A DNA stretch of 64,000 nucleotides from Nannocystis sp. (GTDB taxonomy: Bacteria > Myxococcota_A > Polyangia > Nannocystales > Nannocystaceae): the NCBI RefSeq assembly GCF_016717175.1, contig NZ_JADKFZ010000004.1; one strand, written 5' to 3'. Each line of letters begins with the position of its first letter. Position 1 is the stretch's first letter. A model generated the notes under the pieces. The model was not told the origin of the DNA, searched no databases, and worked only from the letters and a program-made list of their open reading frames with translations. Position numbers and translations under genes: made by a program. This document shows, in pieces, positions 1,671 through 64,000 of the stretch.

Positions 1671-4600
1671 GTGGGGGGATCGGGGACGTTGCGCGGCGCC
1701 CACCGAGCGGGGCCGACCTTCGACGGCGCCGACTCGGGCCCGGCCGCCGAGGACTCCTTGCGCGGCAGCACCCTCAGCGACAGCGACGAGGGCGAGGGCG
1801 AGGGCGACGGCGACGAGGTGGCCGCCGAGGCGCTCAGGTTTGAGCGCGGGGCGACGATCGATCGCTACATGATCCTCGACCGCATCGGCGCCGGGGCGAT
1901 GGGCGTGGTCTACACGGCGTATGACCCGCGCCTCGATCGCCGGGTCGCGCTCAAGGTGATGCACGCGCGGCCGGGGGCGCAGGCCAGCGACGTCGCCACT
2001 CGCCTGCTGCGCGAGGCCCAGGCGCTGGCCAAGCTCTCGCACCCCAACGTCGTCGCGGTGCACGACGCCAACGCGCTCGGCGAGGTCGTGTACCTGACGA
2101 TGGAGCTGGTCGACGGGGTGAGCCTGACGCGCTGGCTCAAGCAGCGCCCGCGCAGCGTCGACGAGACCCTCAAGGTCTTCATCGAGGCCGGGCAGGGCCT
2201 CGCAGGGGCGCACGCGGCGGGGCTCATTCACCGCGACTTCAAGCCCGACAATGTGCTGGTCGGCGACGACGGCCGCGTGCGTGTCGTCGACTTCGGCATC
2301 GCCCGCGGCGCCGATGGCCCCGACCTGATGTCGGTCGACCAGGCGATCGAGCGCTCGCAAGATCCGGCGGCCCGCAGCCTGGTCGGCGCGCCGGTCGAGC
2401 AGGCCAACGCGGTCCCGGCCGCGGCGACGCCCGAGCCGGGCGCCGAGAAGCCGGGCGAGGGCGCGGTGCTGGCGTTCGCGTCGACCGACCGCGGCGCCGT
2501 CCCGGGCTTCGCTCGCAGCAACGACCTGGCCGACACGCAGCGGGCCGAGGCCGGGCAGCTGACGCGGCGCTCCGAGGGGCGGCCGGGCAACAAGGCGCTG
2601 GTGATCGCGGCGGCGGCGGCGGCAGCGGGCACGGGCGGCGAGCGCCCGCGCCTGCACGCATCGCAGCTCGAGACGGCGATCCCCGGGCTGTCCTCGGTGC
2701 GGCTGACGCGGACCGGCGCGCTGGTCGGGACGCCGGCTTACATGGCGCCGGAGCAGCACATCGCGGCTCGCGTCGACGCGCGCACCGATCAGTTCGCCTT
2801 CTGCATCGCGCTGTACGAGGCGCTGTTCGGCAGCCATCCTTTCCCGGCCAAGAACTACGTGCAGCTGAGCCTCAGCGTGCTCGGCGGCAAGGTCGACGCG
2901 ATGGTCGGCCGCAGCGACGTGCCAGTTCGCGTGCGCAAGGCGATCCTGCGCGGGCTCTCGGTCGACCCGGACCAGCGCTTCGCCAGCATGGACGAGCTCA
3001 TCGGGGCGCTGCGCGCCGACCCGGAGCTGCGGCGACGTCGGCGGGTCGCGGTGGCGCTCTTGGCCGGCGGCGTGGCGGGCGTGCTGGCGCTGGCCGGCGC
3101 CCAGGTGTTCGGCGGGGCCCCGCCCTGCGAGGGCGCCGATCGCCACATGGTCGAGGTCTACAACGACGCGGCCCGCGACGACATCCGCGCCGCCTTCCTG
3201 GCGACCGAGCAGCCTTACGCGCCGAAGGTGCTGGAGAGCAGCCTCGCGGGCCTCGATCGCTGGTCGCAGGAGTGGTCGGGCATGCGCCGCGAGGCCTGCG
3301 AGGCGACCCATGTCCACCACGAGCAGTCGGCCGATCTGCTCGAGCGGAGGATCGCCTGCCTCGACCGCAAGCTGCGCAGCCTGTCGGCGATGGTGGCGGT
3401 GCTGCGCGTCGCCGACAAGGACGTGGTGCTGCACGCCGTGCAGTCGGTCGACGCGCTGCCCGAGCTGGCCGAGTGTGAGGACCGCGAGCGGCTGACCCGC
3501 GGCGACGCGCCGTCGGAGCAGAAGAAGCCGATCATCGCGGCGGCCGAGGTGAAGCTGGCGCAGGCCGAGGCGGCGCGGCTCGCCGTGCAGTACGACAACG
3601 CCGAGCGCCTGGCCGGCGAGGCGCTGGCGGTCGCCCGCAGCGAGGGGCTCGCGCGGGTCGAGGTCCAGGCGCTCACGGTGCTCGGGCGGGTCGCCAAGAA
3701 CCAGGGCCGGATCGGCGTCGCCGAGCAGAGCTTCACCGAGGCGGGGCTGATCGCCGAGCGGGTCGGGGCCGACGAGCTGCGCCTCACGGCCGACGGCGAG
3801 CTCGGCGTGGTCCTCGGCGTGCTCTCGCAGCAGCACGCCGAGGCGGAGCGCACGCTGCGGCACGCCGAGGCGCTGCTCGACCGGGTCGGGGCCACGCCGC
3901 ACGAGCGGGTCCGGCTGCGCGAGCGGCTCGGCATGGTGCTCGCGCAGCGCGGGCAGACGGCCGAGGCGCGCGACCTCCTGAGCCTCGCGCTCAGCGAGGC
4001 CGAGGCGCTCCCCGGCGACGGCGGCACCGGCCTGGTCTCGATCCTCAACGCGCGCGGCACGGTGCACGACCAGCGCGGCGAGTCGGCGGCCGCGCTGGCG
4101 GACTTCGGCCGGGCCCTGGCGATCTGCGAGGCTCACCTCAGCCCCGACCACCCCGACGTCGCCGCGATCCTCAGCAACATGGCGATCATCGAGCTGAACG
4201 GCGGCCAGTACGAGCGGGCCCGCGAGCGCTTCGAGCGGGCCTTGAAGATCCATCGCCTGGTGCTCGGCGACGATCACCCGATCACCGGCTCGACGCACAT
4301 GAACCTCGGCACCCTGCTGCAGCAGATGGAGGACTACGACGGGGCGGCCGCGCAGTACGAGCAGGCGCTGGCGGTCGCGACCAAGGCCGGGGGCAGCGAC
4401 GCCGACCTCGCCGACATCCTCTACAACCTCGGCGCGGTCTACCAGCTGCGCAAAGAGTATGAGCGGGCCCTGACGCCCTACCGCGACGCGCTGGCCCGCA
4501 GCGAGCGGGTGCACGGGCCGGACCACGCTGAGGTCGCCTATCCGCTGTTTGGCCTCGGCGGCGTGCTGGTGGAGCTCGGTAGGTACGCCGAGGGCCGCGA

Positions 4601-18135: not shown

Positions 18136-19056
18136 CTAACCCTCGTCGCGCGCGTCGCCGGGCAGCAAGGTGGCGAGCAGGCGGTCGAGCTCGTCGAGGC
18201 TGGCGTAGGGCACCTCGATCGTGCCGCTGCCCTGCTTCTTCGCGTCCGTCTTGACCGCCACCTTGACGCCGAGGCCGCGGCGCAGCCGCTCCTCGAGGTC
18301 GCGGACGATGAGCACGCGCGCGCGCTCGGACTCACTCGGCTCGGCGGGCTCGGGCGGCGGGTGCAGGCGGGCCTTCACGGCCCGCTCGATCGCCCGCACC
18401 GTGTAGCCGCGCTGGATCGCCTCGAGCGCCAGCTCGATCATGTCGGCCGGGCTCTCGAGCGCGAGCAGGGCCCGCGCGTGGCCCATGCTGAGGCGGCCCT
18501 CCTGCACGTAGCCCTGGACCTTCGGCGGCAGCTTGAGCAGGCGCAGCGCGTTGGCGATGGTGCTGCGGTCTTTGCCCAGGCGCTCGGCCAGCTGCTCCTG
18601 GGTGTACTCGCGGACGTCCATCAGCTGGCGATAGGCGGCGGCCTCCTCGATCGGGCTGAGGTCGAGGCGCTGCAGGTTCTCCAGCACCGCGAGCTCGAGG
18701 CGATCGCTCTCGGGGGTGTCGCGTACGACCACCGGGACGTCGTGCAGCCCGGCCAGCTGGGCCGAGCGCCAGCGTCGCTCGCCAGCGACGATCATGAAGC
18801 TGCCCGGCGGATCGTTGTGCGGGGTGACGACGATCGGCTGCAAGATCCCGTGGATCTTGATGCTGTCGGCCAGCTCGCGGAGCAGCGCGGCCTCGAAGTG
18901 CTTGCGCGGCTGATCGCGGTTGGGGACCAGGCTCTCGATCGGCAGGCTCCGCAGCGTCGACCCGCCCGCCTCGGGGCTCTGGGCGGGTTCGCTGGGGCGC
19001 TGCGGGATCAGGGCTCCGAGGCCGCGGCCGAGGACGGGACGCTTGGGCAGGTTCAC
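18136..19056 (-). CDS. parB: chromosome partitioning protein ParB
   Basis: ParB/Spo0J N-domain (GERRWRSAQLAG), HTH, C-terminal dimerisation region. Confidence 0.9.
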   Translation of the reverse strand: MNLPKRPVLGRGLGALIPQRPSEPAQSPEAGGSTLRSLPIESLVPNRDQPRKHFEAALLRELADSIKIHGILQPIVVTPHNDPPGSFMIVAGERRWRSAQLAGLHDVPVVVRDTPESDRLELAVLENLQRLDLSPIEEAAAYRQLMDVREYTQEQLAERLGKDRSTIANALRLLKLPPKVQGYVQEGRLSMGHARALLALESPADMIELALEAIQRGYTVRAIERAVKARLHPPPEPAEPSESERARVLIVRDLEERLRRGLGVKVAVKTDAKKQGSGTIEVPYASLDELDRLLATLLPGDARDEG

Positions 19057-19898
19057 GGGTGTAGCCTCGCTTCCTGGCGCGCCAGCAGCTCTTGCGCGAG
19101 CTCGAGGTAGGCCTTGGCGCCCTTGCTCTCGATGTCGTAGAGCAGCACGGGCTTGCCGTGGCTCGGGCTCTCGCTGAGGCGCACGTTGGGGGGGATCACG
19201 GTCTCGAACACGTGTTCGGCGAAGTGGCGCTTGACCTCCGCGACCACCTGCTGGGCCAGGTTGGTGCGCTTGTCGAGCATGCAGAAGACGATGCCCTCGA
19301 CCTGCAGCCGCGGGTTCAGTGAATCCTTGACCATGCCGATCGTGCCAGTCAACGCGCCCAGGCCCTCGAGCGAGAAGTACTTGGCCTGCATCGGGATCAG
19401 CACCGAGTCGGCGGCGACCAGGGCGTTGAGGGTGAGCAGGCCGAGCGAGGGCGGGCAGTCGAGGATGATGTAGTCCCAGGGCAGCGGCGCCGCCTTCTTG
19501 AACGCCCGCGCCAGCACGGTCTCGCGGCTCAGCACGCTGACCAGCTCGATCTCCGCGCCGGCGAGGTCCTCCGAGGCCGGCACGACCTGCAGCGTGGGCA
19601 GCTCGGTCGGCTGCACCACCGAGAGCAGCGAGGCCCCGCCGAGCAGCAGCTCGTAGCTGCCAGCCTTGATGTGCCCGCGGCTTTGACCCACCGCCGAGCT
19701 GGCGTTGCCCTGCGGGTCGAGGTCGACCAGCAGCACCCGCTTCTCCGCTGCCGCGAGGCTGGCCGCGAGGTTGACCGCGGTGGTCGTCTTGCCCTCGCCG
19801 CCCTTCTGGTTGCTGATCGCCACCACCCGCGCGCCGCGTGACGTGCTCGGGTCAGGGCGGGCTACCTTCGCTGCGGGGTCGGTCGACACGCGGCCCAC
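19053..19898 (-). CDS. parA: chromosome partitioning ATPase ParA (Soj)
   Basis: deviant Walker A (NQKGGEGKTTTAVN); overlaps parB start by 4 nt. Confidence 0.9.
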   Translation of the reverse strand: MGRVSTDPAAKVARPDPSTSRGARVVAISNQKGGEGKTTTAVNLAASLAAAEKRVLLVDLDPQGNASSAVGQSRGHIKAGSYELLLGGASLLSVVQPTELPTLQVVPASEDLAGAEIELVSVLSRETVLARAFKKAAPLPWDYIILDCPPSLGLLTLNALVAADSVLIPMQAKYFSLEGLGALTGTIGMVKDSLNPRLQVEGIVFCMLDKRTNLAQQVVAEVKRHFAEHVFETVIPPNVRLSESPSHGKPVLLYDIESKGAKAYLELAQELLARQEARLHP

Positions 19899-19999
19899 TC
19901 CTTACCATCCGCGGGCCCGCGCTGCTTGTTTCGCGCAGGCCTCGAGACGACGCGTAGTTTATTTGCCTACATGTACGGACATGGCTTACGAAGCCAGAC

Positions 20000-20173
20000 A
20001 TGAGCTACTTCCGGACCGCGTTCACAAGCTTCGAGGAGTTCAAGCGCGAGGCGCTGCAAGATCTTGATGATCTTGGCAAAGAGGAGATCGAGCTGATGCG
20101 TGAAGTGGAGGACCACGACAACTTCCATCGCCGCCCGGCGCGAGGCCGTCGGCCGTTCTACGACCTCGAGTAA
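20000..20173 (+). CDS. small hypothetical protein (57 aa, acidic)
   Basis: ATG-initiated ORF below the six-frame length cutoff in an otherwise empty 280-bp gap divergent from parA; GC3-biased codons. Confidence 0.35.
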   Translation: MSYFRTAFTSFEEFKREALQDLDDLGKEEIELMREVEDHDNFHRRPARGRRPFYDLE

Positions 20174-53766: not shown

Positions 53767-55515
53767 ATGGGGCCGCCTGCGCGCATCCCGCGGCGGCGAG
53801 CAGCCTTGAGTCGGCTCGCCCCTTCGGGGTACTCCTGGCGTGTGCTGACCGTAGTAGTCCATGAGAAGGGCGGCCAAACCCAGCGTTTCTCCTTCAAGGG
53901 CGACAGCTTCTCGATCGGCCGCGAGGATGACAACGACCTCGTGCTCGACCGGGTCAACGTGTCGAAGCACCACCTGCAGTTCGTCAAGGTCGATTCGCGC
54001 GTCGACGTCGTCGACCTCGAGAGCACCAACGGGACCTACCTCAACGGGCGCAAGGTGGCCGCGCCGCGGACCGTGCGGCGCACCGACCGGGTCTACGTGG
54101 GTGACTACATCCTCATGCTCGAGGGCGATGACGCGGTCCTCGCGGTCGCCAGTCGCGAGGGTGAGAAGCGGCGCGGCGGGACCTCGCCGGGCGCGCGCCC
54201 GGGCGAGCTCACGGCCGACGACACCGGCCTCGTGACCTCGGCGCAGCGCGTCGCCGCGGCGGGGATCGAGAGCAGCTACCTCGACGGCCTGGCCGCGCAG
54301 ATCCACCAGACCTTGCTCAAGGCGGTGCCGCGGCTCGACCCGCTGCAGGCCAACGACATCAGCGACGACGAGCGCAAGGAGGTCATCGAGATGGTCGACG
54401 GCGTGCTCGCCGACCTGCGCGACTCGCAGCAGATCGAGGCCACCGTCGACATCGGCCCGTTCCGCGAGCGGGTGCTCCGCGAGGCGCTCGAGTGGGGCCC
54501 GCTCGGCGACCTCATGCGCGACGACAGCGTGCGCGAGATCCAGGTGGTCGGCACCGGACCGCTGCACGTGATCCGCGACGGCGGCGTGCCGGACCGCCTC
54601 GAGCTGCGCTTCACCAGCGACGGCGCCCTCATGCGCGTGATCCAGCGGATGACCCGCAAGCGCGGCCTGCTCGCCGAGGGCTCGCACGTGCTCGAGGGGA
54701 CGATCGACCACGGCTTCTACCTCTACGCCCTGATCCCGCCGCACCCGGCGCGGCAGCTGGTGCTGAGCCTCCGGCGCATGCGCACCGACGCCAACAACCT
54801 GACCGCGCTGGTCCAGGAGGGCGTGCTGAGCCCGGACATGCGCGAGCTGCTGGTGCTGGTGCTGCGGGCCTGTCGACGCGTGCTGGTGTGCGCCTCGGGC
54901 GGGGTCAACCTCGACCGCTTCACCCGCGCGCTGATCGGCGAGATCCCGGACTCGCTGCGCGTCGCCTGCATCTCGGACTCGGGCCGCCTCGGCAACCGCA
55001 AGGGTTGGGTGCAGGTCCGTCGCCTCACCGAGGTCGGGGACAAGATCGACCTCCAGCACGTGCTCAACGTGCTGCTGCGCGGCGGCCTCGATCTGCTCAT
55101 CTCGCAGCAGTGCGGCCACAGCGACGCGGCCGCGGTGATCGACGCGCTGGCCGGGGCGAGCCGCGGCGCGGTGGTCTCGCTGTGGGGCATCAACACGGCG
55201 CACGCGCTGTCGCGGCTGGCCGCCCTCGGCACCGTCTCCGGCGGTGCGGCCCAGGGCCTGACCCTGTCGCTGGCGCACGCGATCGACCTGGTGGTCCGCC
55301 TCAACAGCGGGGTCAGCCTCGAGTCGATGCAGGTGATCGAGATCGTCGAGCCGAACACCCGCGCGGACGGCACGATCGAGTACCGCCCGCTGTTCGTCGC
55401 CGCCAAGGCCGAGGACGGCACCACGGAGTTCAGGAGCACGCCGCACGTGGCCGACTTCCTGCGCCGGCTCGCCGACCAGGGCGCCGAGGTCCCGCAGCGC
55501 CTGCGGAGCCTGTGA
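53767..55515 (+). CDS. FHA-domain protein with degenerate CpaF/VirB11-type secretion ATPase domain (Walker A/B lost)
   Basis: FHA motifs (FSIGREDDNDLVLD...SKHHLQF..STNGTYLNG); CpaF-like core (ALIPPH) but Walker A is ASGGVNLDRFT (no GKT) and Walker B/catalytic Glu region is LISQQCG. Confidence 0.7.
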   Translation: MGPPARIPRRRAALSRLAPSGYSWRVLTVVVHEKGGQTQRFSFKGDSFSIGREDDNDLVLDRVNVSKHHLQFVKVDSRVDVVDLESTNGTYLNGRKVAAPRTVRRTDRVYVGDYILMLEGDDAVLAVASREGEKRRGGTSPGARPGELTADDTGLVTSAQRVAAAGIESSYLDGLAAQIHQTLLKAVPRLDPLQANDISDDERKEVIEMVDGVLADLRDSQQIEATVDIGPFRERVLREALEWGPLGDLMRDDSVREIQVVGTGPLHVIRDGGVPDRLELRFTSDGALMRVIQRMTRKRGLLAEGSHVLEGTIDHGFYLYALIPPHPARQLVLSLRRMRTDANNLTALVQEGVLSPDMRELLVLVLRACRRVLVCASGGVNLDRFTRALIGEIPDSLRVACISDSGRLGNRKGWVQVRRLTEVGDKIDLQHVLNVLLRGGLDLLISQQCGHSDAAAVIDALAGASRGAVVSLWGINTAHALSRLAALGTVSGGAAQGLTLSLAHAIDLVVRLNSGVSLESMQVIEIVEPNTRADGTIEYRPLFVAAKAEDGTTEFRSTPHVADFLRRLADQGAEVPQRLRSL

Positions 55516-56237
55516 TGCCCGTCCTGTCACGCTTGCCGCGAACGTCGCTCGCTGGGGTCTCGCTGTTGCTCGCCTGCGCGAGCAAGCCCGCCGAGGGTGT
55601 GGGGGCCCCGGCCGCGCCGGCGACCGATCACCGGGCCCGTGGGCACCACAAGCACCACCGCTTCGACAACGCCGAGCAGTGGGCGGCCCAGTTCGACAAC
55701 CCGGCGCGCGACGCCTGGCAGCATCCGGAGGCGGTCGTCGCCGCCCTCGCGCTGGCCCCGGACGCGACGGTCGCCGACCTCGGGGCGGGCACCGGCTACT
55801 TCGCCGTGCGCCTGGCCCGGGCCGTCCCACGCGGCCGCGTCTACGCCGAGGACCTCGAGCCCGACATGGTCCGCTACCTCGGTGAGCGAGCGACCCGCGA
55901 GGGCCTCGGCAACCTCGTGGCAGTGCGCGGCGAGCCGGCCGATCCGCGGCTACCGGTGGTGGTCGACGCCGCGATCATGGTCGACACCTACCATCACGTC
56001 GACGATCCGGACCGCTTCTTCGCCGCGCTGCGCGAGCGCCTGCGCCCGGACGGCGCCCTGGTCATCGTCGACTTCAAGAAGGACGCGCCGGACGACGCCC
56101 CCGGGCCGCCCGCGGCGATGCGGATCGCCGACGAGGTGGTGGTCGCTCGCCTCGTCGCGCTCGGCTTCACGCACGTCCGCACCGACCGCGATCTGCTGCC
56201 CTACCAGTACCTGGTCCATCTGCGACGCGGACCTTGA
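55515..56237 (+). CDS. class I SAM-dependent methyltransferase lipoprotein
   Basis: lipobox LLAC; motif I VADLGAGTGYFAV; TGATG overlap with upstream gene. Confidence 0.8.
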   Translation: MPVLSRLPRTSLAGVSLLLACASKPAEGVGAPAAPATDHRARGHHKHHRFDNAEQWAAQFDNPARDAWQHPEAVVAALALAPDATVADLGAGTGYFAVRLARAVPRGRVYAEDLEPDMVRYLGERATREGLGNLVAVRGEPADPRLPVVVDAAIMVDTYHHVDDPDRFFAALRERLRPDGALVIVDFKKDAPDDAPGPPAAMRIADEVVVARLVALGFTHVRTDRDLLPYQYLVHLRRGP

Positions 56238-56349: not shown

Positions 56350-57795
56350 ATGACGCGCGCCCACCTGTGTCCTCTGCTCTGCCTCGCGCTCCTCCTGCCC
56401 GCCTGCGGCGACGACGGCAGCGACGAGACCCTGACCGGCTCGACCGCGGCCACCGAAGGCAACTCGAGCTCGCCCACGAGCGGACCGACGCCGACCAGCG
56501 GCGACACCGGCGAGCCGGCGAGTCGGCCCAACTGGCACGAGGACATCGCGCCGGTGGTGGCCGAGCACTGCGGCAGCTGTCACTACGACGGCGGCATTGC
56601 GCCGTTTAGCATGGCGAGCTACGAGGGCGTGAAGCCGTGGGCGCCGGCGATGGCGGCCGACGTCGAGATGGGCATCATGCCGCCGTGGCACGCCCTCGAG
56701 ACCGACGAGTGCACGCCGCCCTTCGCGTTCAAGCACGACGCGCGCCTGAGCGACGATCTCAAGGCGCTGATCAGCGAGTGGTCGGCCAACGGCGCGCCGG
56801 AGGGCGACCCCAAGCTGGCCGCGCCGATCCCCGACGCGCCCTCGCTCGACCTGGTGGGCGCGAACAAGACGGCGTTGATGCAGTCGGAGCTGACGGTGCC
56901 GGCAGCGGGCCAGGTCCGCGACTACTTCAACTGCCTGAGCATCGACCCCGGCAACGCCGGCACCGTGTACCTCGACGGCATCCAGGTCATCGCGGGCAAC
57001 CGCTCGATCGTGCATCACGTGCTGATCTACGTCGACACCAAGGGCGACTCGGCGAAGTGGCCGGGCGGCGTCAAGATGGACTGCGGCGGCGGACCGGGCG
57101 GCGTCGCCGGGGCGCAGTTGGTCGCTGGCTGGGTCCCGGGCGGCATGCCGATCGAGCCGCCGGCCGACGTGGGCACCGAGCTGCCGCCCGGCACGCGCCT
57201 GATCATGAACGTGCACTACCACGCCGCCGCGGCGGCGCAGAAGGACTCGAAGACCGGGCTGGCGCTGCGCTGGAAGGACACGGCCCCGGCGTGGTCGTCG
57301 CTGTTCGTGCTGGTCGGCGACCCCGGCGTCGGCACCTCGCTCGACGGCCCGCTGATGATCCCCGCCGGCGAGAAGGACCACGTCGAGGAGTACTCGTGGA
57401 AGGTCAGCTTCAACGGCAAGGACTTCCCCGACCTCGTCGACGTGCGCCTGTGGGCCGCGCTCAACCACATGCATAAGGTCGGCGTCGACCTCAAGGTGTG
57501 GATCGAGGACCGCGACACCGGCGACGCGACCTGCCTGCTGCAGACGCCGAAGTGGGACTTCAACTGGCAGCGCTCCTATGCCTACGACACGCCGATCGAG
57601 AGCGGCTTCCGCGTCCGCTCCGGCGACACGGTGCGGGTCCGTTGCACCTACGACAACACCCTCGACAACCCCGGGGTCCAGGAGATGCTCGCCGAGGTCG
57701 GCGGCAAGGAGCCGGTCGACGTGGTCCTGGGCGAGGGTACGCTCAACGAGATGTGCATCACCGGCCTCGGCGTAGCGATCAAGGGCGGCCTGTAG
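56350..57795 (+). CDS. lipoprotein with c-type haem motif (CGSCH) and copper type-II monooxygenase-like His clusters
   Basis: lipobox LPAC; CxxCH at N-domain; HHVLIY / NVHYH / NHMH motifs in PHM/DBH-like spacing. Confidence 0.55.
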   Translation: MTRAHLCPLLCLALLLPACGDDGSDETLTGSTAATEGNSSSPTSGPTPTSGDTGEPASRPNWHEDIAPVVAEHCGSCHYDGGIAPFSMASYEGVKPWAPAMAADVEMGIMPPWHALETDECTPPFAFKHDARLSDDLKALISEWSANGAPEGDPKLAAPIPDAPSLDLVGANKTALMQSELTVPAAGQVRDYFNCLSIDPGNAGTVYLDGIQVIAGNRSIVHHVLIYVDTKGDSAKWPGGVKMDCGGGPGGVAGAQLVAGWVPGGMPIEPPADVGTELPPGTRLIMNVHYHAAAAAQKDSKTGLALRWKDTAPAWSSLFVLVGDPGVGTSLDGPLMIPAGEKDHVEEYSWKVSFNGKDFPDLVDVRLWAALNHMHKVGVDLKVWIEDRDTGDATCLLQTPKWDFNWQRSYAYDTPIESGFRVRSGDTVRVRCTYDNTLDNPGVQEMLAEVGGKEPVDVVLGEGTLNEMCITGLGVAIKGGL

Positions 57796-57819: not shown

Positions 57820-59658
57820 TCAGATCGCCGGTGTCGGGCTGGCGACCGCGCGCGCGGGCGCGGAGAAGGCGAGCTCGACGAGGCCCGGCAGCGGGGTCGC
57901 CTGCGGGTGCAGCTCCATGCGGCCGAGGCTGCGGTCCATGTCGCGGGCGATCGGTGACAGGCTGCGGCGGCGCTGGCCGCCCTCGGCCACCTGCGCGGCC
58001 AGGCGCTCGGGCGACGGGCGGCGCGGCCATTCGGCCAGGCCGACGGCCGCGGCCAGGTCGGCGCCCTGCGCCGGCCCGAGGGCGGCCAGCGCCCGCAGGA
58101 CCAGCTCGTCGAGCACCTCCTCGGTCCACGCGAGCTTCTCCTGCATGAATGCATGGACCTCGTCGGGGCTCATCTCGCGGGCGAGGTCGAGGTGGAGGTT
58201 GGCGAGGATCGAGGGGATCGTCGGCACCTTCACGTGCACCGGGCGGGGCAGGTCCGCTTCACCCGGGACGGCGCGCCGGGCCCACTGCGAGAGCAGCAGC
58301 TGGGCCCGCCGCTGCAGCGCGCCGAACTGGTCGGCCAGCGCCTCGAAGCGGCCGTGCTCGGCCGCGGGCAGCTTGTAGATGCGGCGAAAGAAGTACTGGC
58401 AGAGGAAGGACCAGTAGGTGAAGTCGTCCCAGTACACCTTCGCAGCCATCACCCGCGGGTTGCCGAGGACCGGCCCCGAGTCGCGGTAGATCTCGATCGT
58501 GGCGGCGAACATCTTGCGGTAGAAGCGATCGAAGCGGTCCGCCATCTCGGCCATCTCGGTGGTGTCGCCGCCGCGCAGGCGGGCCTTGAGCAGCTCCGTG
58601 GTGAACGAGTTGGCGACGGCGATGAAGTCGGAGCCCGGCGAGTAGAAGGGGTCGGCGAACACGCCGGCGTCGCCGATCAGCGACCAGCGGTCGGCCGAGA
58701 AGCAGCGCTTGCTGCCGTGGCTGTAGTGCTTGAGGCACAGGAAGTCCTCGGCCGGCAGGTCCTTGATCTGGGCGTGGCACAGCGGCTCGTGCTTGGCGAC
58801 CCACGCGAGCGAGCGCTCGAAGCTGCGGATCGTGTCGAAGGGGTGAAACTCGTCGTGGACGACGATGCCGATCGAGGTGTGGGCCTCGCCGCCCGGGCCC
58901 GGGGCGAGCGGGATGTACCACAGCCAGTAACCCGTCCCCATGAAGTGCACGGTCGAGTACCAGCGGTTGTGCTCGCGGTCGCGGTTGTGCCACCAGGCCT
59001 CGCTCGCGGGCACGAGGTCGGCGACGTCGACCCGGCCCTTGACCCGCCACCACGCCGCGTTGGCGAGGTGGCCGCTCGGGGTCTTGAGCCCGAGCTTGGT
59101 CTTGAGCAGCGCGCGGCGGCCGGTGGCGTCGACGAACCAGCCCGCGCGCAGGGTGCGGGTCGTGCCGTCGTGGGCCTCGATGTGGACGAGGTGGTCGTCG
59201 GCGCCGTCGCTGGCGAGGGTGACGTCCTTGACGCTGTGGCCCTCGAGCAGGGTGACGCCGTCGGCGACGTTCATGGCCCGCAGGTCGCCCTCGAGGCGGC
59301 CGCGGTCGAGCTGGAACGACGGCACCTTGGCCAGCTCGGGCGGGCCGATCTCGGTGCGCTGCTCGAGCGCCAGCGTGCGCCCGCCGCCGGGATAGAAGCG
59401 CAGGCCGTTCTTGAGGTAGTGGTGCGTGCGCAGGTACGCGTCGAGGCCGAGCACGACGCTGAAGTAGTTCGAGGACAGCTCGACCGAGGACTCGCCGACC
59501 TTGTGCGCCGCCGCCGGCAGCGGCCGGGCCTGACGCTCGATCACGGCGACCCGCGCCTCGGGCAGCTCACGCCGCAGCTGGCGCGCCAGGGCCTGCCCGG
59601 CCAGGCCGCCGCCGCCGATCACGACATCGAAGTGTTCGGGTGCTCGCTCGCTGTGCAT
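57820..59658 (-). CDS. flavin-dependent halogenase (tryptophan-halogenase family)
   Basis: GxGxxG FAD motif (VVIGGGGLAGQ) and the family signature WxWxIP (GTGYWLWYIPL); start at ATG 59658. Confidence 0.75.
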   Translation of the reverse strand: MHSERAPEHFDVVIGGGGLAGQALARQLRRELPEARVAVIERQARPLPAAAHKVGESSVELSSNYFSVVLGLDAYLRTHHYLKNGLRFYPGGGRTLALEQRTEIGPPELAKVPSFQLDRGRLEGDLRAMNVADGVTLLEGHSVKDVTLASDGADDHLVHIEAHDGTTRTLRAGWFVDATGRRALLKTKLGLKTPSGHLANAAWWRVKGRVDVADLVPASEAWWHNRDREHNRWYSTVHFMGTGYWLWYIPLAPGPGGEAHTSIGIVVHDEFHPFDTIRSFERSLAWVAKHEPLCHAQIKDLPAEDFLCLKHYSHGSKRCFSADRWSLIGDAGVFADPFYSPGSDFIAVANSFTTELLKARLRGGDTTEMAEMADRFDRFYRKMFAATIEIYRDSGPVLGNPRVMAAKVYWDDFTYWSFLCQYFFRRIYKLPAAEHGRFEALADQFGALQRRAQLLLSQWARRAVPGEADLPRPVHVKVPTIPSILANLHLDLAREMSPDEVHAFMQEKLAWTEEVLDELVLRALAALGPAQGADLAAAVGLAEWPRRPSPERLAAQVAEGGQRRRSLSPIARDMDRSLGRMELHPQATPLPGLVELAFSAPARAVASPTPAI

Positions 59659-59828
59659 GCCGCAAGTCCTCGCGCCGCGGGCCTCGTCGGCGCGGGCCAA
59701 GGATACGCAAGGTCGCCGCGTTTGCCCGCGCAAAGGTGTGCGTTCGCGCTCTGCGCAGCGCCCGGCCAATCTCCCTCCTGGCGCGCTGGACGTCGCCTCG
59801 CGCCCTCGTTACCATCCCGCACCCAAAA

Positions 59829-60089
59829 ATGACGCGCGCGGAAATTTCTCAGCGGGTGGTCGGCATCCTGGTCAAGACCTTCGAGCTCGACCCCGCCGAC
59901 ATTCACCCCGAATCTCGGCTCTACGAGGACCTCGACCTCGACAGCATCGACGCGGTCGACATGTTCGTCGAGCTGCACGAGATCACCGGGCGACGCATCG
60001 ACCCCGAGGTCGCCCGCAAGATCCGCACGGTCGACGACATCGTCGGCCTCGTCGAGTCCGAGCTGGCGAGCGCAGGCGCGGCATCCTGA
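59829..60089 (+). CDS. acyl carrier protein
   Basis: 86-aa four-helix pattern with phosphopantetheine-attachment DLDLDSIDAVDM motif. Confidence 0.8.
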   Translation: MTRAEISQRVVGILVKTFELDPADIHPESRLYEDLDLDSIDAVDMFVELHEITGRRIDPEVARKIRTVDDIVGLVESELASAGAAS

Positions 60090-60119
60090 GCGCGAGAGCT
60101 CCGCCAGCGCCCGTGCCCC

Positions 60120-60962
60120 GTGCCGAAGTTCCTCCGCATCCTGCTGTCCGCGTCGGCCTTCGCGGCGTTCTTCTTCACCGCCTCGGTGCTGGGTCGCCTG
60201 CTGCTGCCGATCGTGGTCCACTGGCCTGGCTCGCCGGAGCGGCGTCAGGCCCGGCGCCAGCGCCTGCTGCTGCTCTCGTACCGCAGCTTCATCGGCTACA
60301 TGCGGGCGCTGCGGCTGATCCACTTCACCCGGCCCGCGCTGCCCGCCGACCTGCCGCCCCCGGGTCAGCCCTACCTGCTGATCGCCAACCACCCCTCGCT
60401 GATCGACGTGCTGGTGCTGACGAGCCTGCTGCCAGGCCTGACCAGCGTGGCCAAGGCGTCGTGGTTTCGTTCGTGGCTGATGCGACCGCTGCTCGAGTAC
60501 GCCGGCTACATCCCCGGCGCCGACGACCGGGCGCTGCCCGAGGCGAGTGACGGCGAGTCCGGCGAGGACCGCAGCCCGGTGCTGCTGCGGATGGTCGAGC
60601 ACCTGCGCTCGGGTCATCCGCTGCTGGTGTTCCCGGAGGCCTCGCGCTCGCACGAGCGATCGCTGCGCCGGTTCCGTCGCGGCGCGATCGAGGCGGCGAT
60701 CCGCGCCGGCGTGCCGATCGTCCCGGCCTTCATCTCGGTGGTGCCGCCGATGCTGATGAAGCACCAGGCCTGGTACGACGTGCCGGCCCGCGGCGGGCGC
60801 TACACGGTCGAGTTCTTCCCGGTGATCACGACCGCGGGCCAAAGCCTCGACTCGCGCGTGCTGGCGCGGGAGCTGCGGGCCCGCTACGAGCAGCGCCACG
60901 CGCAGATGCTGGCCGAGCGCGACGCCCTCGCGGCCGCGAGCTCGCGCAAGGCGCTGGCCTGA
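60120..60962 (+). CDS. lysophospholipid acyltransferase (PlsC/LPLAT family)
   Basis: N-terminal TM; HX4D motif (ANHPSLIDV) and FPEASRS (FPEGTR-like) motif; GTG start. Confidence 0.8.
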   Translation: MPKFLRILLSASAFAAFFFTASVLGRLLLPIVVHWPGSPERRQARRQRLLLLSYRSFIGYMRALRLIHFTRPALPADLPPPGQPYLLIANHPSLIDVLVLTSLLPGLTSVAKASWFRSWLMRPLLEYAGYIPGADDRALPEASDGESGEDRSPVLLRMVEHLRSGHPLLVFPEASRSHERSLRRFRRGAIEAAIRAGVPIVPAFISVVPPMLMKHQAWYDVPARGGRYTVEFFPVITTAGQSLDSRVLARELRARYEQRHAQMLAERDALAAASSRKALA

Positions 60963-61068
60963 GCCGTAACCTGAGCCGTGGCCTCGAGCTGTGCGCCCGA
61001 GCTGTGCGTCTTTGCCGGGGCCGCGGATCGCGTTGACATTGCCGACGCGCTCCGCGAGCCTCCACCCC

Positions 61069-62460
61069 ATGAGCGAGCGCTTCGATGTCGTGATCGTGGG
61101 GGCCGGGCTCTCGGGGGTCGGCGCGGCGTGCCATCTGAGGCGCTCGTGCCCGGGCAAGTCCTTCGTGCTGCTCGAGGGCCGCGAGGCGATCGGCGGCACC
61201 TGGGACCTGTTTCGTTACCCGGGGATCCGCTCCGACTCGGACATGTACACCTTCGGCTACGCGTTCGAGCCGTGGAAGGGGGACAAGGCGCTGGCCGACG
61301 GCCCGGCGATCCGCGCCTATGTGCAGGCCACGGCCCGCAAGTACGACGTCGACACGCAGGTGCGCTTCGGCCACCGCGTGACGCGGCTGTCGTGGTCGAG
61401 CGTCGACGCCGAGTGGACGATCGAGGTGACCCGCAGCGACGGCAGCAGCGCCCGCTTCACCGCCGGCTTCGTGTGGATGTGCACCGGCTACTACCGCTAC
61501 GACGCCGGCCACACGCCGGAATTCGCGGGCCGCGAGCGCTTCCGCGGGCGCATCGTCCACCCGCAGCACTGGCCCGAGGACCTCGACTACAGCGGCCAGC
61601 GGGTGGTCGTGATCGGCAGCGGGGCGACGGCGGTGACGCTGGTGCCGGCGATGGCCGGACGCGCCGCGCACGTGACCATGCTGCAGCGCTCGCCGAGCTA
61701 TGTGCTGTCGCGGCCGGCGACCGACGCGGTGGCCCGGGGTCTGCGGCGGGTGCTCCCGGAGCGCGTCGCGTACGCGCTGTCGCGCTGGAAGAACGTGGCC
61801 CTGGCGACGCTGCTGTACCAGCTGTCGCGGCGGCGCCCCGCGGGCATGAAGCGCTTCCTCATCGACCAGGTGCAGCGCGCGCTCGGCCCGGATTACCCCG
61901 TCGATCCGGACTTCACCCCGCGCTACGACCCGTGGGATCAGCGCCTGTGCCTGGTCCCGGAGAACGACCTGTTCGTGGCGATCCGCGAGGGCAAGGCCGA
62001 TGTCGTCACGGACACGGTCGAGTGCTTCACCGAGACGGGGATCCGCCTCGGCTCCGGCGCCGAGCTGCCGGCCGATCTGGTGGTGACCGCGACCGGGCTC
62101 GAGCTGCTGTTCCTCGGCGGCAGCGAGCTGGTGGTCGACGGGCGCACGATCGATGTGGCGGCCGAGATGAGCTTCAAGGGCATGATGCTGAGCGGTGTGC
62201 CCAACCTGGCGTTCACGGTCGGCTACACCAACGCGTCGTGGACGCTGCGCGCTGATCTGGTCGCGGAGCACGTGTGCCGATTGCTGCACCACATGGATCG
62301 GGTCGGGGCGCGCAAGGTGGTGCCGCGGCGCGGCGCCGACCCGGTGCTCACGCCGCTGATGGACCTCAGCTCCGGCTATGTTCAGCGGGCCCTCGATCGC
62401 TTCCCGAAGCAGGGGGCGAAGAACCCGTGGCGGGTCCGCCAGAACTACTTCGCGGACTAG
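61069..62460 (+). CDS. flavin-containing (class B, FMO/BVMO-like) monooxygenase
   Basis: FAD GAGLSG, GGTW, NADPH GxGxxA (VIGSGATA) motifs. Confidence 0.85.
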   Translation: MSERFDVVIVGAGLSGVGAACHLRRSCPGKSFVLLEGREAIGGTWDLFRYPGIRSDSDMYTFGYAFEPWKGDKALADGPAIRAYVQATARKYDVDTQVRFGHRVTRLSWSSVDAEWTIEVTRSDGSSARFTAGFVWMCTGYYRYDAGHTPEFAGRERFRGRIVHPQHWPEDLDYSGQRVVVIGSGATAVTLVPAMAGRAAHVTMLQRSPSYVLSRPATDAVARGLRRVLPERVAYALSRWKNVALATLLYQLSRRRPAGMKRFLIDQVQRALGPDYPVDPDFTPRYDPWDQRLCLVPENDLFVAIREGKADVVTDTVECFTETGIRLGSGAELPADLVVTATGLELLFLGGSELVVDGRTIDVAAEMSFKGMMLSGVPNLAFTVGYTNASWTLRADLVAEHVCRLLHHMDRVGARKVVPRRGADPVLTPLMDLSSGYVQRALDRFPKQGAKNPWRVRQNYFAD

Positions 62461-62546
62461 CGCGGAGGACGTCGCACGGGTCGGTGCGGTCCGGCTGGGC
62501 GTCCGCGGAGGCTCGAGAAGCCGGATGTCCGAGAGGGGGGTCGCCC

Positions 62547-62713
62547 TCAAACACGGCCTGACACACCGTCGCCGGGGTGATATCCGGGTCTACGCCGGAC
62601 TCGGTCGACCCCCCTCTCGGCCCTCCGGCAAGTGAAGCCTCCGCTCAAGGACGGTGCGGTCGGCCTCGCCGAAAGCCGGACCGCACCGGCCCTGAGGGCG
62701 CGACATGGCTGCA
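62547..62713. repeat. left copy of ~170-bp inverted repeat flanking the Cys-rich gene
   Basis: reverse complement of 63832-64000 at ~92% identity; contains GGTGCGGTC...GACCGCACC hairpin. Confidence 0.85.
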
Positions 62714-62763: not shown

Positions 62764-63766
62764 TCATAAAGGGATAGCGCAGACGCCCACGTGCTTGAAG
62801 CCAAACGGGTTCGGGTCGAACCATTGCACACATGTTTGGTCAGGGTTTGGGCAGGGGTCCATCCTCGTCAAGTCGCAGTAGGGCTGGCAGCAGCCCTGGG
62901 AGCCCTGCATGCACGCGCTCGAGGCGCTGGCGGTGTCGATGCAGACGAGGCCCTTGTCGCAGGCGTTGGGGAGGTCGCAGGGGTCGTTGATCTGGCCCAT
63001 GTCGCCCGAGGCTTCGACGCACTTTACGCTCCCGTCGATGATGAGGCACAACTCGTCGCCGGGGCAGTCCTGAAGCAGCGGATTGCGGACCGGTAGGCAG
63101 AGGTTCAGCACGCTGTCGCCGAAGATGTGACACGAGAGGTCACCGTCGCAGATCGGGGCGTCAGGGGTGCCTGTGCAAAAGGCGACGCAGTGGCCCATGT
63201 TCATGTTGTTGACGTCGACGGCCCAGCACATCGCACCCGCTTCGCAGTTGTCGATGCCGCTGACACCGCTGCCCTCGGCCGTGCAGATGTCGCCGGGGAC
63301 CTTGTCACCCGTCACCGGGACACATTTGGTGGCGTTCCAGTTCCCGCCGCCATCGTCGGCCCACACGGTGCACTTCTCGCCGGGAGCGCAGTCCTGCTTG
63401 TACACGTCGCATTTGATCGTGCCACCATTGTCAAAATCATGGCCGGTGATGAAGCCGCTGGGATAGTCGCTGGTCGAGCACGCGGTATCGCAGGGGCCCG
63501 TGCTGCTGGTGCTTGTGGGTGTTCCGATCGTCGGGGCGCTGGCCTCGGTGCTGCTTGTGGCTGGTGGTGGTGGTGCTGCTGCTGCCGCTGCTGCCGCCCT
63601 CCGTGGTCTGCGGCTTCGTGGGGCCGCAGGCGAGCAGCATGGCGACACCCAGGCCCAAAGCTGCGATCGCGACCGGGGCGGGGGCGTCGAGCAATTCGAC
63701 GCCGCAGATCGGGCAGCGCGCCTCCACGCGGCGGACGAGACGGTGGCAGCGATGACACGTTCTCAT
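62764..63766 (-). CDS. cysteine-rich repeat secreted lipoprotein; N-terminal signal/lipobox in a different frame from the Cys-rich body (apparent frameshift in SSSTTTT linker ~63560-63600)
   Basis: frame ending 63766 gives MLLACGPTKP lipobox; frame ending 63648 gives more than 35 Cys body; frames switch within ACC/AGC homopolymeric codon repeats. Confidence 0.5.
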
Positions 63767-63831: not shown

Positions 63832-64000
63832 TGCAGCCATGTCGCGCCCTCAGGGCTGGTGCGGTCCGGCGCTCGGCGAGGCCGACCGCACCGTCCTTTA
63901 GCGGAGGCTTCGCTTGCCGGAGGGCCGGAAGAGGCCTCGACCGAGTCCGGCGTAGACCCGGATTTCACCCCGGCGACGGTTTGTCAGGCCGTGTTTGAGG
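63832..64000. repeat. right copy of inverted repeat (truncated by window end)
   Basis: reverse complement matches 62547-62713. Confidence 0.85.

Follow-up and report, generated by a model that had tools for sequence, protein, structure and literature searches.

A halogenase, carrier protein and acyltransferase locus of Nannocystis sp. as a probable fragment of a split, aryl-polyene-derived lipid pathway

A 64-kb stretch of the genome of Nannocystis sp. (Myxococcota; contig NZ_JADKFZ010000004.1; hereafter the window, meaning all 64,000 nucleotides analysed) encodes, near its right end, a flavin-dependent halogenase (HAL1) that is divergently transcribed from genes for a stand-alone acyl carrier protein (ACP), a membrane acyltransferase of the PlsC/LPLAT family (AT) and a class B flavoprotein monooxygenase. 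A sequence-only reading of this DNA had presented the four genes as a compact cassette and candidate pathway for a halogenated or oxygenated acyl lipid, one not recognised as described before. We find instead that HAL1, ACP and AT probably form a fragment of a split and reduced type II polyketide synthase/fatty acid synthase-like lipid pathway that derives from aryl polyene (APE) biosynthesis and whose chain-building genes lie elsewhere, while the monooxygenase is probably a lineage-specific neighbour that is unrelated or was taken up very recently.

The carrier protein and the acyltransferase both point to the APE pathway. The ACP gene (59829-60089, + strand, 86 aa) matches the PP-binding family (6e-9) and scores 103.7 bits against the NCBIfam ACP model NF003757 (cut-off 65), with the phosphopantetheine attachment site at Ser39 within LDLDSID. 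The ape cluster region of E. coli CFT073, whose gene functions are tabulated in PMC8253772, served as reference for Ape orthology: the ACP is 60.6% identical to ApeF (3e-28) and 31.7% identical to AcpP, and ApeE from the same genome gave no match with it. Its best match in the PDB, 9L1V (1e-14), was identified by the depositors as ApeF of A. baumannii. By sequence comparison the ACP is an ApeF orthologue, and it is 83% identical to the ACP of an N. pusilla operon described below. The AT gene follows 30 nt downstream (60120-60962, + strand, 280 aa), an adjacency that parallels the apeD-E-F order of E. coli CFT073. Its product matches PF01553 (1e-22) and carries the HX4D motif at H91-D96 (NHPSLID, 90-96) and an FPEASR motif at 171-176, which align with NHQSLMD and FPEGTRS of T. 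maritima PlsC (TmPlsC, 5KYM), the only PDB match (7e-7). Membrane association is predicted from a hydrophobic N-terminus at about residues 7-33, with a Kyte-Doolittle window of 2.0 over residues 15-33 as the sole membrane measure. A comparison with E. coli ApeD (9e-16, 25% identity) classes this protein as a predicted ApeD-like membrane acyltransferase. AT is 65% identical to the corresponding proteins of two Nannocystis metagenome-assembled genomes (MAGs), 59% to the one that closes the N. pusilla operon, 49% to that of a compact cluster (L030) and 33% to the protein at the ApeD position of a canonical APE cluster (L021). A role in ornithine-lipid synthesis or as a housekeeping PlsC was rejected, given an OlsA score of 16 bits (cut-off 300), a PlsC equivalog score of 32.6 (cut-off 501) and an ApeF-type ACP. 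With ACP and AT resembling ApeF and ApeD components of the aryl polyene pathway, and halogenases on record in clusters for xanthomonadin and arcuflavin (PMC3691225, PMC3949708), the earlier description of the pathway as new no longer holds.

HAL1 (57820-59658, - strand) probably starts at ATG 59658 (612 aa, beginning MHSER), whereas the NCBI call places the start at TTG 59700 (626 aa). The protein is 100% identical to a database protein of Nannocystis sp., has homologues numbering in the thousands, and matches the Pfam family Trp_halogenase at 3e-11. Motif location confirmed the GxGxxG and WxWxIP motifs of HAL1 named by the sequence-only reading, along with the HX4D and FPEGTR-like motifs of AT. 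The FAD-binding GxGxxG is GGGGLAG at residues 15-21 and is invariant in the family alignment; WxWxIP is WLWYIP inside GYWLWYIPL (243-251), aligned with the same motif in CndH and PltA; and FxDPxxSxG is FADPFYSPG (334-342), found at the same place as FVDPVFSSG of CndH and FVDPIFSSG of PltA. In a profile alignment K83 (K97 in the 626-aa form), within YLKNGLRF (IKNGLRF in the profile), coincides with the lysine in IKRGGTF of CndH, by our count the catalytic K76, which corresponds to K79 of PrnA. None of the motif residues, this lysine and the W, W, I and P of WxWxIP included, varies among 11 homologues as distant as 53% identity. In PrnA the lysine is partnered by E346. Such a glutamate partner is confined to tryptophan halogenases; at this place the pyrrole and phenol type, with CndH and PltA as examples, has F-x-D-P-x-x-S-x-G. 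The glutamate is not present in HAL1, whose segment reads FADPFYSPG. Because the proven halogenases CndH and PltA lack it too, its absence excludes the tryptophan-halogenase subtype and not halogenase function; of the Lys/Glu pair proposed earlier as a diagnostic, only the lysine is found in HAL1.

Remote homology and fold prediction gave a concordant picture. A profile of 11 HAL1 family members, compared with solved structures, matched CndH best (6.7e-22), followed by PltA, a Cytophaga protein (3nix), ChlB4, Mpy16, CmlS and Bmp2. In a Foldseek search of the PDB with an AlphaFold2 model of HAL1 (pLDDT 78.9, pTM 0.84), 45 of the 50 best matches, occupying ranks 1-45, were flavin-dependent halogenases or the halogenase-like 3nix (PltA, 3nix, CtcP, CmlS, RadH, ChlB4, FasV, Mpy16, CndH, PltM, MalA and Bmp2; E-values 1e-18 to 1e-14). 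Sequence and model make it credible that HAL1 is a halogenase of the pyrrole/phenol ("variant B"-like) type acting on carrier-protein-tethered substrates, in agreement with the initial reading of this flavoenzyme, given its best matches (CndH, PltA, Mpy16, Bmp2 and CmlS) and the aligned catalytic lysine. The NCBI name, tryptophan halogenase, was ruled out, since HAL1 lacks the glutamate segment and is matched best by carrier-protein-dependent pyrrole and phenol halogenases. HAL1 shares with CndH, PltA, Mpy16 and Bmp2 the GxGxxG motif, the catalytic lysine, WxWxIP, FxDPxxSxG and a genomic pairing with a stand-alone carrier protein. It differs from them in that identity is only ~19-23%, in an extra C-terminal region of its own (~230 aa, ~356-613 of the 626-aa form; family-specific, conserved and mostly helical), and in its putative substrate: in place of a pyrrolyl- or tyrosyl-S-carrier protein, HAL1 would act on an acyl-ACP of the polyene or aryl-polyene kind. 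No flavin reductase gene adjoins HAL1.

A flavin monooxygenase of the same fold could in principle hydroxylate the ACP-bound chain and thereby yield a hydroxylated polyene lipid. Such a hydroxylase would be consistent with the weak and partial Pfam and NCBIfam matches of HAL1, to which FAD_binding_3 and ubiquinone-hydroxylase-type models also respond, with the description of the family in many sources merely as "flavin-dependent dehydrogenase", with a HAL1 clade that has no characterised member, and with the closeness of 3nix, a fold match of no known function. We nevertheless consider a hydroxylase improbable: WxWxIP, the lysine aligned with K76 of CndH and FxDPxxSxG, which set halogenases apart from hydroxylases with the same fold, are all present and invariant, and the hydroxylases MtmOIV and KMO rank only behind the 45 halogenase or halogenase-like fold matches. 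HAL1 homologues also occur in xanthomonadin-type clusters with brominated products (PMC3691225).

Beyond the window, HAL1 homologues recur beside genes of APE type. Our census covered 80 species-level loci with a HAL1 homologue, from Myxococcota, Planctomycetota, Bacteroidota, Acidobacteriota, Burkholderiales and cyanobacteria, and APE-type genes were sought within 10 kb. At least one such gene was present at 51 of the 80 loci and at least two at 28; counted by gene, a ketosynthase (KS) occurs at 42, AT at 22, an ApeI-like gene at 22, an ApeP-like gene at 15 and ACP at 14. Of the 22 AT-bearing loci, 17 have no more than 600 nt between AT and HAL1, and these 17 species span Myxococcota and Planctomycetota. 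One planctomycete locus (L021; HAL1 47% identical) is a canonical APE cluster of the order DUF3261-MMPL-LolA-GT2-ApeI-ACP(ApeE type)-AT/HAL1-O-methyltransferase-ApeP-CLF-KS-KR-KS (slash, divergent transcription; CLF, chain length factor; KR, ketoreductase), and a Variovorax locus (L061) has the order KS-CLF-HAL with a halogenase 41% identical to HAL1, an arrangement also drawn for xanthomonadin-type clusters (PMC3691225).

A second type of cluster is more compact and carries a further halogenase, HAL2, a HAL1 paralogue (37-38% identical) with the same lysine, WxWxIP and FxDPxxSxG. Among these compact clusters, whose ACPs are 60-65% identical to that of the window, L033 reads DUF3261-AT-KS-HAL2/HAL1-ACP-ApeP, and L020, with HAL2/HAL1-ACP-ApeP, also has an MMPL transporter and DUF3261. 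In Sandaracinus amylolyticus the genes are divided between one locus with ApeI-ApeP-KR-2TM-HAL1 and another with HAL/HAL2-ACP-KS. The KS of N. pusilla and of a Nannocystis MAG are 50-52% identical to E. coli ApeR and 30% to ApeO, and PDB matches of a Nannocystis KS (P0223) favour PpApeR (4EWG, 5.6e-132) and AbApeR (7F27, 1.7e-129) over FabB (~1e-81); by these comparisons the lone KS of the compact clusters is an ApeR orthologue. With ApeQ of E. coli CFT073 the Sandaracinus KR shares 50% identity; for ApeI and ApeP the similarity to that strain is weaker. The full Myxococcota set comprises one ApeR-type (FabB-like) KS, an ApeF-type ACP, ApeI, ApeP, an ApeQ-type KR, an ApeD-like AT, HAL1 and HAL2, to which ApeN (DUF3261) and an MMPL exporter are often added.

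Side features of these relatives concern the halogenases, a possible starter unit and the cluster edges. S. amylolyticus has two HAL1-type genes, one at L094 (5927-7735, - strand, 602 aa, 46% identical to HAL1) divergent from HAL2-ACP-KS and one at L001 (10001-11770, 589 aa, 60% identical) beside ApeI-ApeP-KR, which with HAL2 makes three halogenase paralogues tied to one pathway. Next to HAL2/HAL1-ACP-ApeP, L020 encodes a chorismate-binding enzyme (PF00425, 4e-77; 2331-3626, + strand) and an esterase (3613-4518, - strand); the former is possibly a source of an aromatic starter, or possibly a mere menaquinone or folate gene. Large proteins with no Pfam match (589-794 aa) edge some compact clusters (L033 15765-18149, - strand, and 18235-20142, + strand; L001 5202-6971, + strand), and some of them may be divergent exporters, as L020 has its MMPL transporter at the equivalent position.

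Within Nannocystaceae the same genes are split over two or three loci and rearranged. N. pusilla (L095, a complete genome) and two MAGs (L100 and L101) share the operon DapA-DapB-ApeI-HAL2-ACP-ApeP-KS-AT, and a further Nannocystis MAG (L092) has ApeI-HAL2-ACP-KS-AT. In two other loci (L096 and L090) ACP-ApeP-AT-HAL1 lie on one strand, with HAL1 71% and AT 62% identical to the window proteins in a metagenomic relative. The divergent layout of the window, HAL1/ACP-AT, is found in L085, L088 and L097, and in the last of these (HAL1 66% and AT 67% identical) it is followed by an unrelated peroxiredoxin gene. An antiSMASH survey reported 2 arylpolyene clusters in N. exedens (PMC4902002).

These rearrangements bear on whether the genes are linked by function at all. 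HAL1, the ACP-AT pair and the monooxygenase could be fortuitous neighbours engaged in unrelated processes, as might be suspected from homologues 59-69% identical to HAL1 that are solitary or lie beside other genes (L002-L005, L007 and L087). Yet AT directly adjoins HAL1 in the 17 species of two phyla noted above, and the linkage persists through three gene orders in Nannocystaceae. That HAL1, ACP and AT stay linked across several gene orders points to function rather than inherited synteny alone, and chance adjacency is very improbable. The co-occurrence of these three genes anticipated by the sequence-only reading was thus found in related and distant genomes alike; extended to all four genes it failed, as the monooxygenase joins the trio only in close relatives.

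The window itself holds a pathway fragment and not a full APE cluster, because the KS, KR, ApeI and ApeP genes that adjoin ACP/AT or HAL1 homologues in relatives are not in it. A tblastn search with a KS query returned no match anywhere in the 64 kb, and no ketoreductase or ApeI/ApeP dehydratase was found in the scanned parts. The other window genes scanned have housekeeping or signalling functions (SHMT, IGPS, Lon, DnaK, PurH, Ser/Thr kinases, sigma-54 activators, a peroxiredoxin and CcmH). The earlier statement that no KS, polyketide-type acyltransferase or nonribosomal peptide synthetase lies nearby therefore extends to the entire window, on the basis of the KS search and the genes scanned.

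This lack of a KS is also what an autonomous four-gene cassette would predict, in which the dedicated ACP would take up an acyl chain from housekeeping fatty-acid synthesis, HAL1 would halogenate it, the monooxygenase would oxygenate it and AT would pass it to a lysolipid, with no dedicated KS involved. Consistent with a cassette, the four genes are contiguous and compact (spacers of 170 nt between HAL1 and ACP, 30 nt between ACP and AT, and 106 nt between AT and the monooxygenase), no terminator-like match falls between AT and the monooxygenase, and L085, L088 and L089 have this set of four as well. This recurrence, however, is confined to close relatives that share the flanking genes, which indicates recent common ancestry. 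Moreover, in other Nannocystis genomes the nearest homologues of ACP and AT sit with a dedicated ApeR-type KS and dehydratases, and the ACP resembles ApeF, not AcpP. We therefore regard a self-sufficient cassette as rather unlikely, and the N. pusilla and MAG homologues, in operons with ApeI, ApeP, an ApeR-type KS and a second halogenase, do not bear out the claim of self-containment. What stands of the original biochemical logic is the tailoring of an ACP-bound acyl chain followed by PlsC-type transfer to a lipid, which is sound; the autonomy of the locus and the part given to the monooxygenase do not.

The monooxygenase (61069-62460, + strand, 463 aa) is itself a recognizable flavoprotein. 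It matches FMO-like at 1e-13, with Pyr_redox families matching as well, and has VGAGLSG at residues 10-16, the type I Baeyer-Villiger monooxygenase (BVMO) fingerprint FRGRIVHPQHWP at 158-169 and IGSGATA at 182-188. The segment FRGRIVHPQHWP aligns with FTGDIVHTARWP of steroid monooxygenase 4AOS, both corresponding to the FxGxxxHxxxWP fingerprint. Residues 4-217 match steroid monooxygenase (4e-34), PAMO (~1e-31) and CHMO, over a range of 4e-34 to 1e-31, whereas the C-terminal half matches BVMOs poorly, a second stretch reaching a weak 8.8 bits. The window protein thus has in common with these enzymes both Rossmann motifs and the FxGxxxHxxxW[P/D] fingerprint, but is shorter, at 463-489 aa against ~540 aa. 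An alternative GTG start lies at 60991, and the Rossmann fold begins from ATG 61069.

Its distribution sets it apart from the trio. The monooxygenase gene is beside AT only in L085 (HAL1 86% identical), L088 and L089, that is at HAL1 identities of at least 86%, where the flanking Cu-monooxygenase-like, methyltransferase, FHA and CcmH genes are also shared with the window; L088, L089 and L090 are among 4 loci retrieved by a metagenome scan with a single AT sequence. At 66-71% HAL1 identity, where HAL1-ACP-AT persist, it is gone. It is absent from L090, L096, L097, L095 and L100, and none of the 80 species loci gave a full-length match. Its loss falls somewhere between 67% and 83% AT identity. 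Two short matches of 50% (L011 and L019) were filtered out as Rossmann-motif matches overlapping HAL1 itself. Even among the close relatives, a gene for a 126-aa hydrophobic (membrane) protein parts AT from the monooxygenase in L085 (8195-8575, - strand) and L089 (gap 1039-1604), and is absent in the window. Because the gene adjoins AT only where the whole neighbourhood is conserved, a recent neighbour is the most likely explanation, and its membership of the pathway, as first proposed, was not upheld.

From the gene identities, the Ape orthology and the conserved linkage we infer a substrate, halide, acceptor lipid and product for the split APE-derived pathway as follows. The ApeF-type ACP would carry the growing chain through cycles of KS (ApeR), KR (ApeQ) and dehydratase (ApeI/ApeP) that proceed without enoyl reduction, which would give an acyl-ACP with a conjugated polyene chain, whether or not its starter is aromatic. 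HAL1, together with a HAL2 encoded elsewhere, would then halogenate this intermediate on the ACP via the conserved lysine, consuming FADH2, O2 and halide. The membrane ApeD-like AT would take the finished chain off the ACP and attach it to an acceptor, a lysophospholipid or glycerol phosphate, resulting in a membrane-anchored halogenated polyene lipid, with export by DUF3261 and MMPL proteins where these are present. The KS, dehydratase, KR and HAL2 genes of this Nannocystis lineage would reside at other loci. By analogy with xanthomonadin I, which is dibrominated (PMC3949708), a dihalogenated product would fit the presence of two halogenases. A link to salimabromide, a brominated compound of Enhygromyxa, was considered and dropped, a review having assigned that compound to a type III polyketide synthase with its own halogenase (PMC4902002).

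A variant of this pathway can be entertained tentatively, in which the compact system would make no aryl polyene but undescribed halogenated conjugated-polyene fatty-acyl phospholipids (relatives of the "cFA" branch), and the HAL1-ACP-AT lineage would additionally have recruited a Baeyer-Villiger monooxygenase for tailoring. Some observations sit uneasily with the split APE-derived pathway. The compact clusters do without ApeO/ApeC, ApeE and ApeH: none of them turned up in the window, nor within 10 kb of L020, L030, L033, L092, L095 and L100, and "aryl polyene" may thus be the wrong label for the product. Canonical clusters with a HAL1 homologue, L021 for example, do have them. Identity between AT and ApeD is low, at the 25% given above. 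HAL1 stands alone in N. bainbridge (L087) and several MAGs, and linkage is not universal. The monooxygenase gene, on the same strand as AT and 106 nt downstream with no predicted terminator, is possibly co-transcribed with it in the Nannocystis lineage. The remainder of the pathway in the source genome, represented here by its 64-kb window, is extrapolated from other Nannocystis genomes, and neither a product nor an assayed activity is known for any HAL1 clade member or compact two-halogenase cluster.

Two groups of described clusters come close to the split pathway. The APE cluster (apeA-R) of E. coli CFT073 and Xenorhabdus doucetiae resembles the window in its ACP (ApeF, 61%) and ApeD-like AT, and the partner genes of relatives in ApeR (50-52%), ApeQ (50%), ApeI, ApeP, ApeN (DUF3261) and an ApeM-like MMPL protein. 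The logic is also shared, as the APE proposal has a chain on ACP esterified to a lysophospholipid (bioRxiv 10.1101/2020.12.19.423268; PMC8253772), and specifically has ApeD transferring an ApeF-bound conjugated fatty acyl group to the sn-2 position of lyso-phosphatidylglycerol (bioRxiv 10.1101/2020.12.19.423268); an alternative proposal makes ApeF a shuttle for malonyl units (PMC12624758, PMC8358021). Unlike the APE cluster, with its ApeO/ApeC, ApeE, ApeH and ApeJ glycosyltransferase, the compact Myxococcota clusters have none of these found in them and add two flavin halogenases, and Nannocystaceae differ further in dispersing the genes over two or three loci, with no chain-building gene in the window. 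The xanthomonadin and arcuflavin clusters of Xanthomonas, Variovorax and Azoarcus likewise encode type II polyene synthases in which an ACP and a phospholipid-type acyltransferase are joined by a halogenase. A halogenase is recorded in Xanthomonas clusters, and xanthomonadin-type pigments bear 0-2 Br (PMC3691225); the arcuflavin genes of Azoarcus, which include the halogenase ArcA, acyltransferase ArcD and ACP ArcV, are split over two loci (PMC3949708), a division also seen in Nannocystis. The proteobacterial halogenases differ in being ~450-550 aa long and, judging from match ranges, in having no more than a small part of the C-terminal extension that the proteins from Myxococcota and Planctomycetota carry. 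In xanthomonadin clusters the KS is accompanied by a CLF-like partner, and a chorismatase (XanB2) provides for the aryl starter; neither of these was found in the window system.

APE-type clusters have been described as the biosynthetic gene cluster family that is most widely distributed among bacteria, and APE lipids are protective under oxidative stress and have an effect on biofilm formation (PMC8253772). Nannocystaceae have the pathway in fragments, and cluster-wise tools and readers of a single locus will see an orphan "halogenase-ACP-acyltransferase" cassette. Myxococcota, and in part Planctomycetota, conserve a reduced form, ApeR/ApeF/ApeD plus two flavin halogenases, without a known product. 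If that product were identified, myxobacterial chemistry would gain halogenated membrane polyene lipids, and there would be a genetic handle on the ApeR/ApeF/ApeD branch alone, whose role in the canonical pathway is debated between a malonyl shuttle and a second conjugated acyl carrier.

Reading frames, third-position G+C and Pfam matches confirm the positions first given for the four genes and the divergence of HAL1 from ACP, AT and the monooxygenase. The window has a G+C content of ~72%, and the frame-specific G+C at third codon positions (GC3) is 0.94-0.95 in all four genes, which supports the coding frames. The HAL1/ACP divergent intergenic region (59659-59828, 170 nt) is presumed to be a bidirectional promoter region. 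A promoter scan of 57.5-62.9 kb, including this spacer, found no sigma-70-like sites; terminator-like matches in the same interval fall within genes and are uninformative; and Rfam gave no match in 57.5-64 kb.

The genes flanking the locus are of other kinds. On the HAL1 side, the gene at 56350-57795 (+ strand) encodes a lipoprotein-like protein of 481 aa with weak matches to Cu2_monooxygen (3e-4) and Cu2_monoox_C (8e-5), families of PHM/DBH-like, copper type II ascorbate-dependent enzymes. It keeps its place beside HAL1 in L085 and L086, with an Eco57I-type gene inserted between the two there. An FHA-domain gene (53767-55515, + strand) ends where a class I SAM methyltransferase gene (55515-56237, + strand) begins, the latter encoding a lipoprotein-like N-terminus, and this FHA/methyltransferase pair and the upstream CcmH gene are syntenic in L085. 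Directly downstream of the monooxygenase lies a gene (62764-63648, - strand) for a Cys-rich, secreted or lipoprotein-like protein with no Pfam match. It is flanked by a 169-nt inverted repeat (62545-62713 and 63832-64000; 93% complementary), whose right arm reaches the window end. Each arm has its own near-palindrome, the window holds two copies only, Rfam gave no match, and the repeat could be the mark of an inserted cassette or a structured element.

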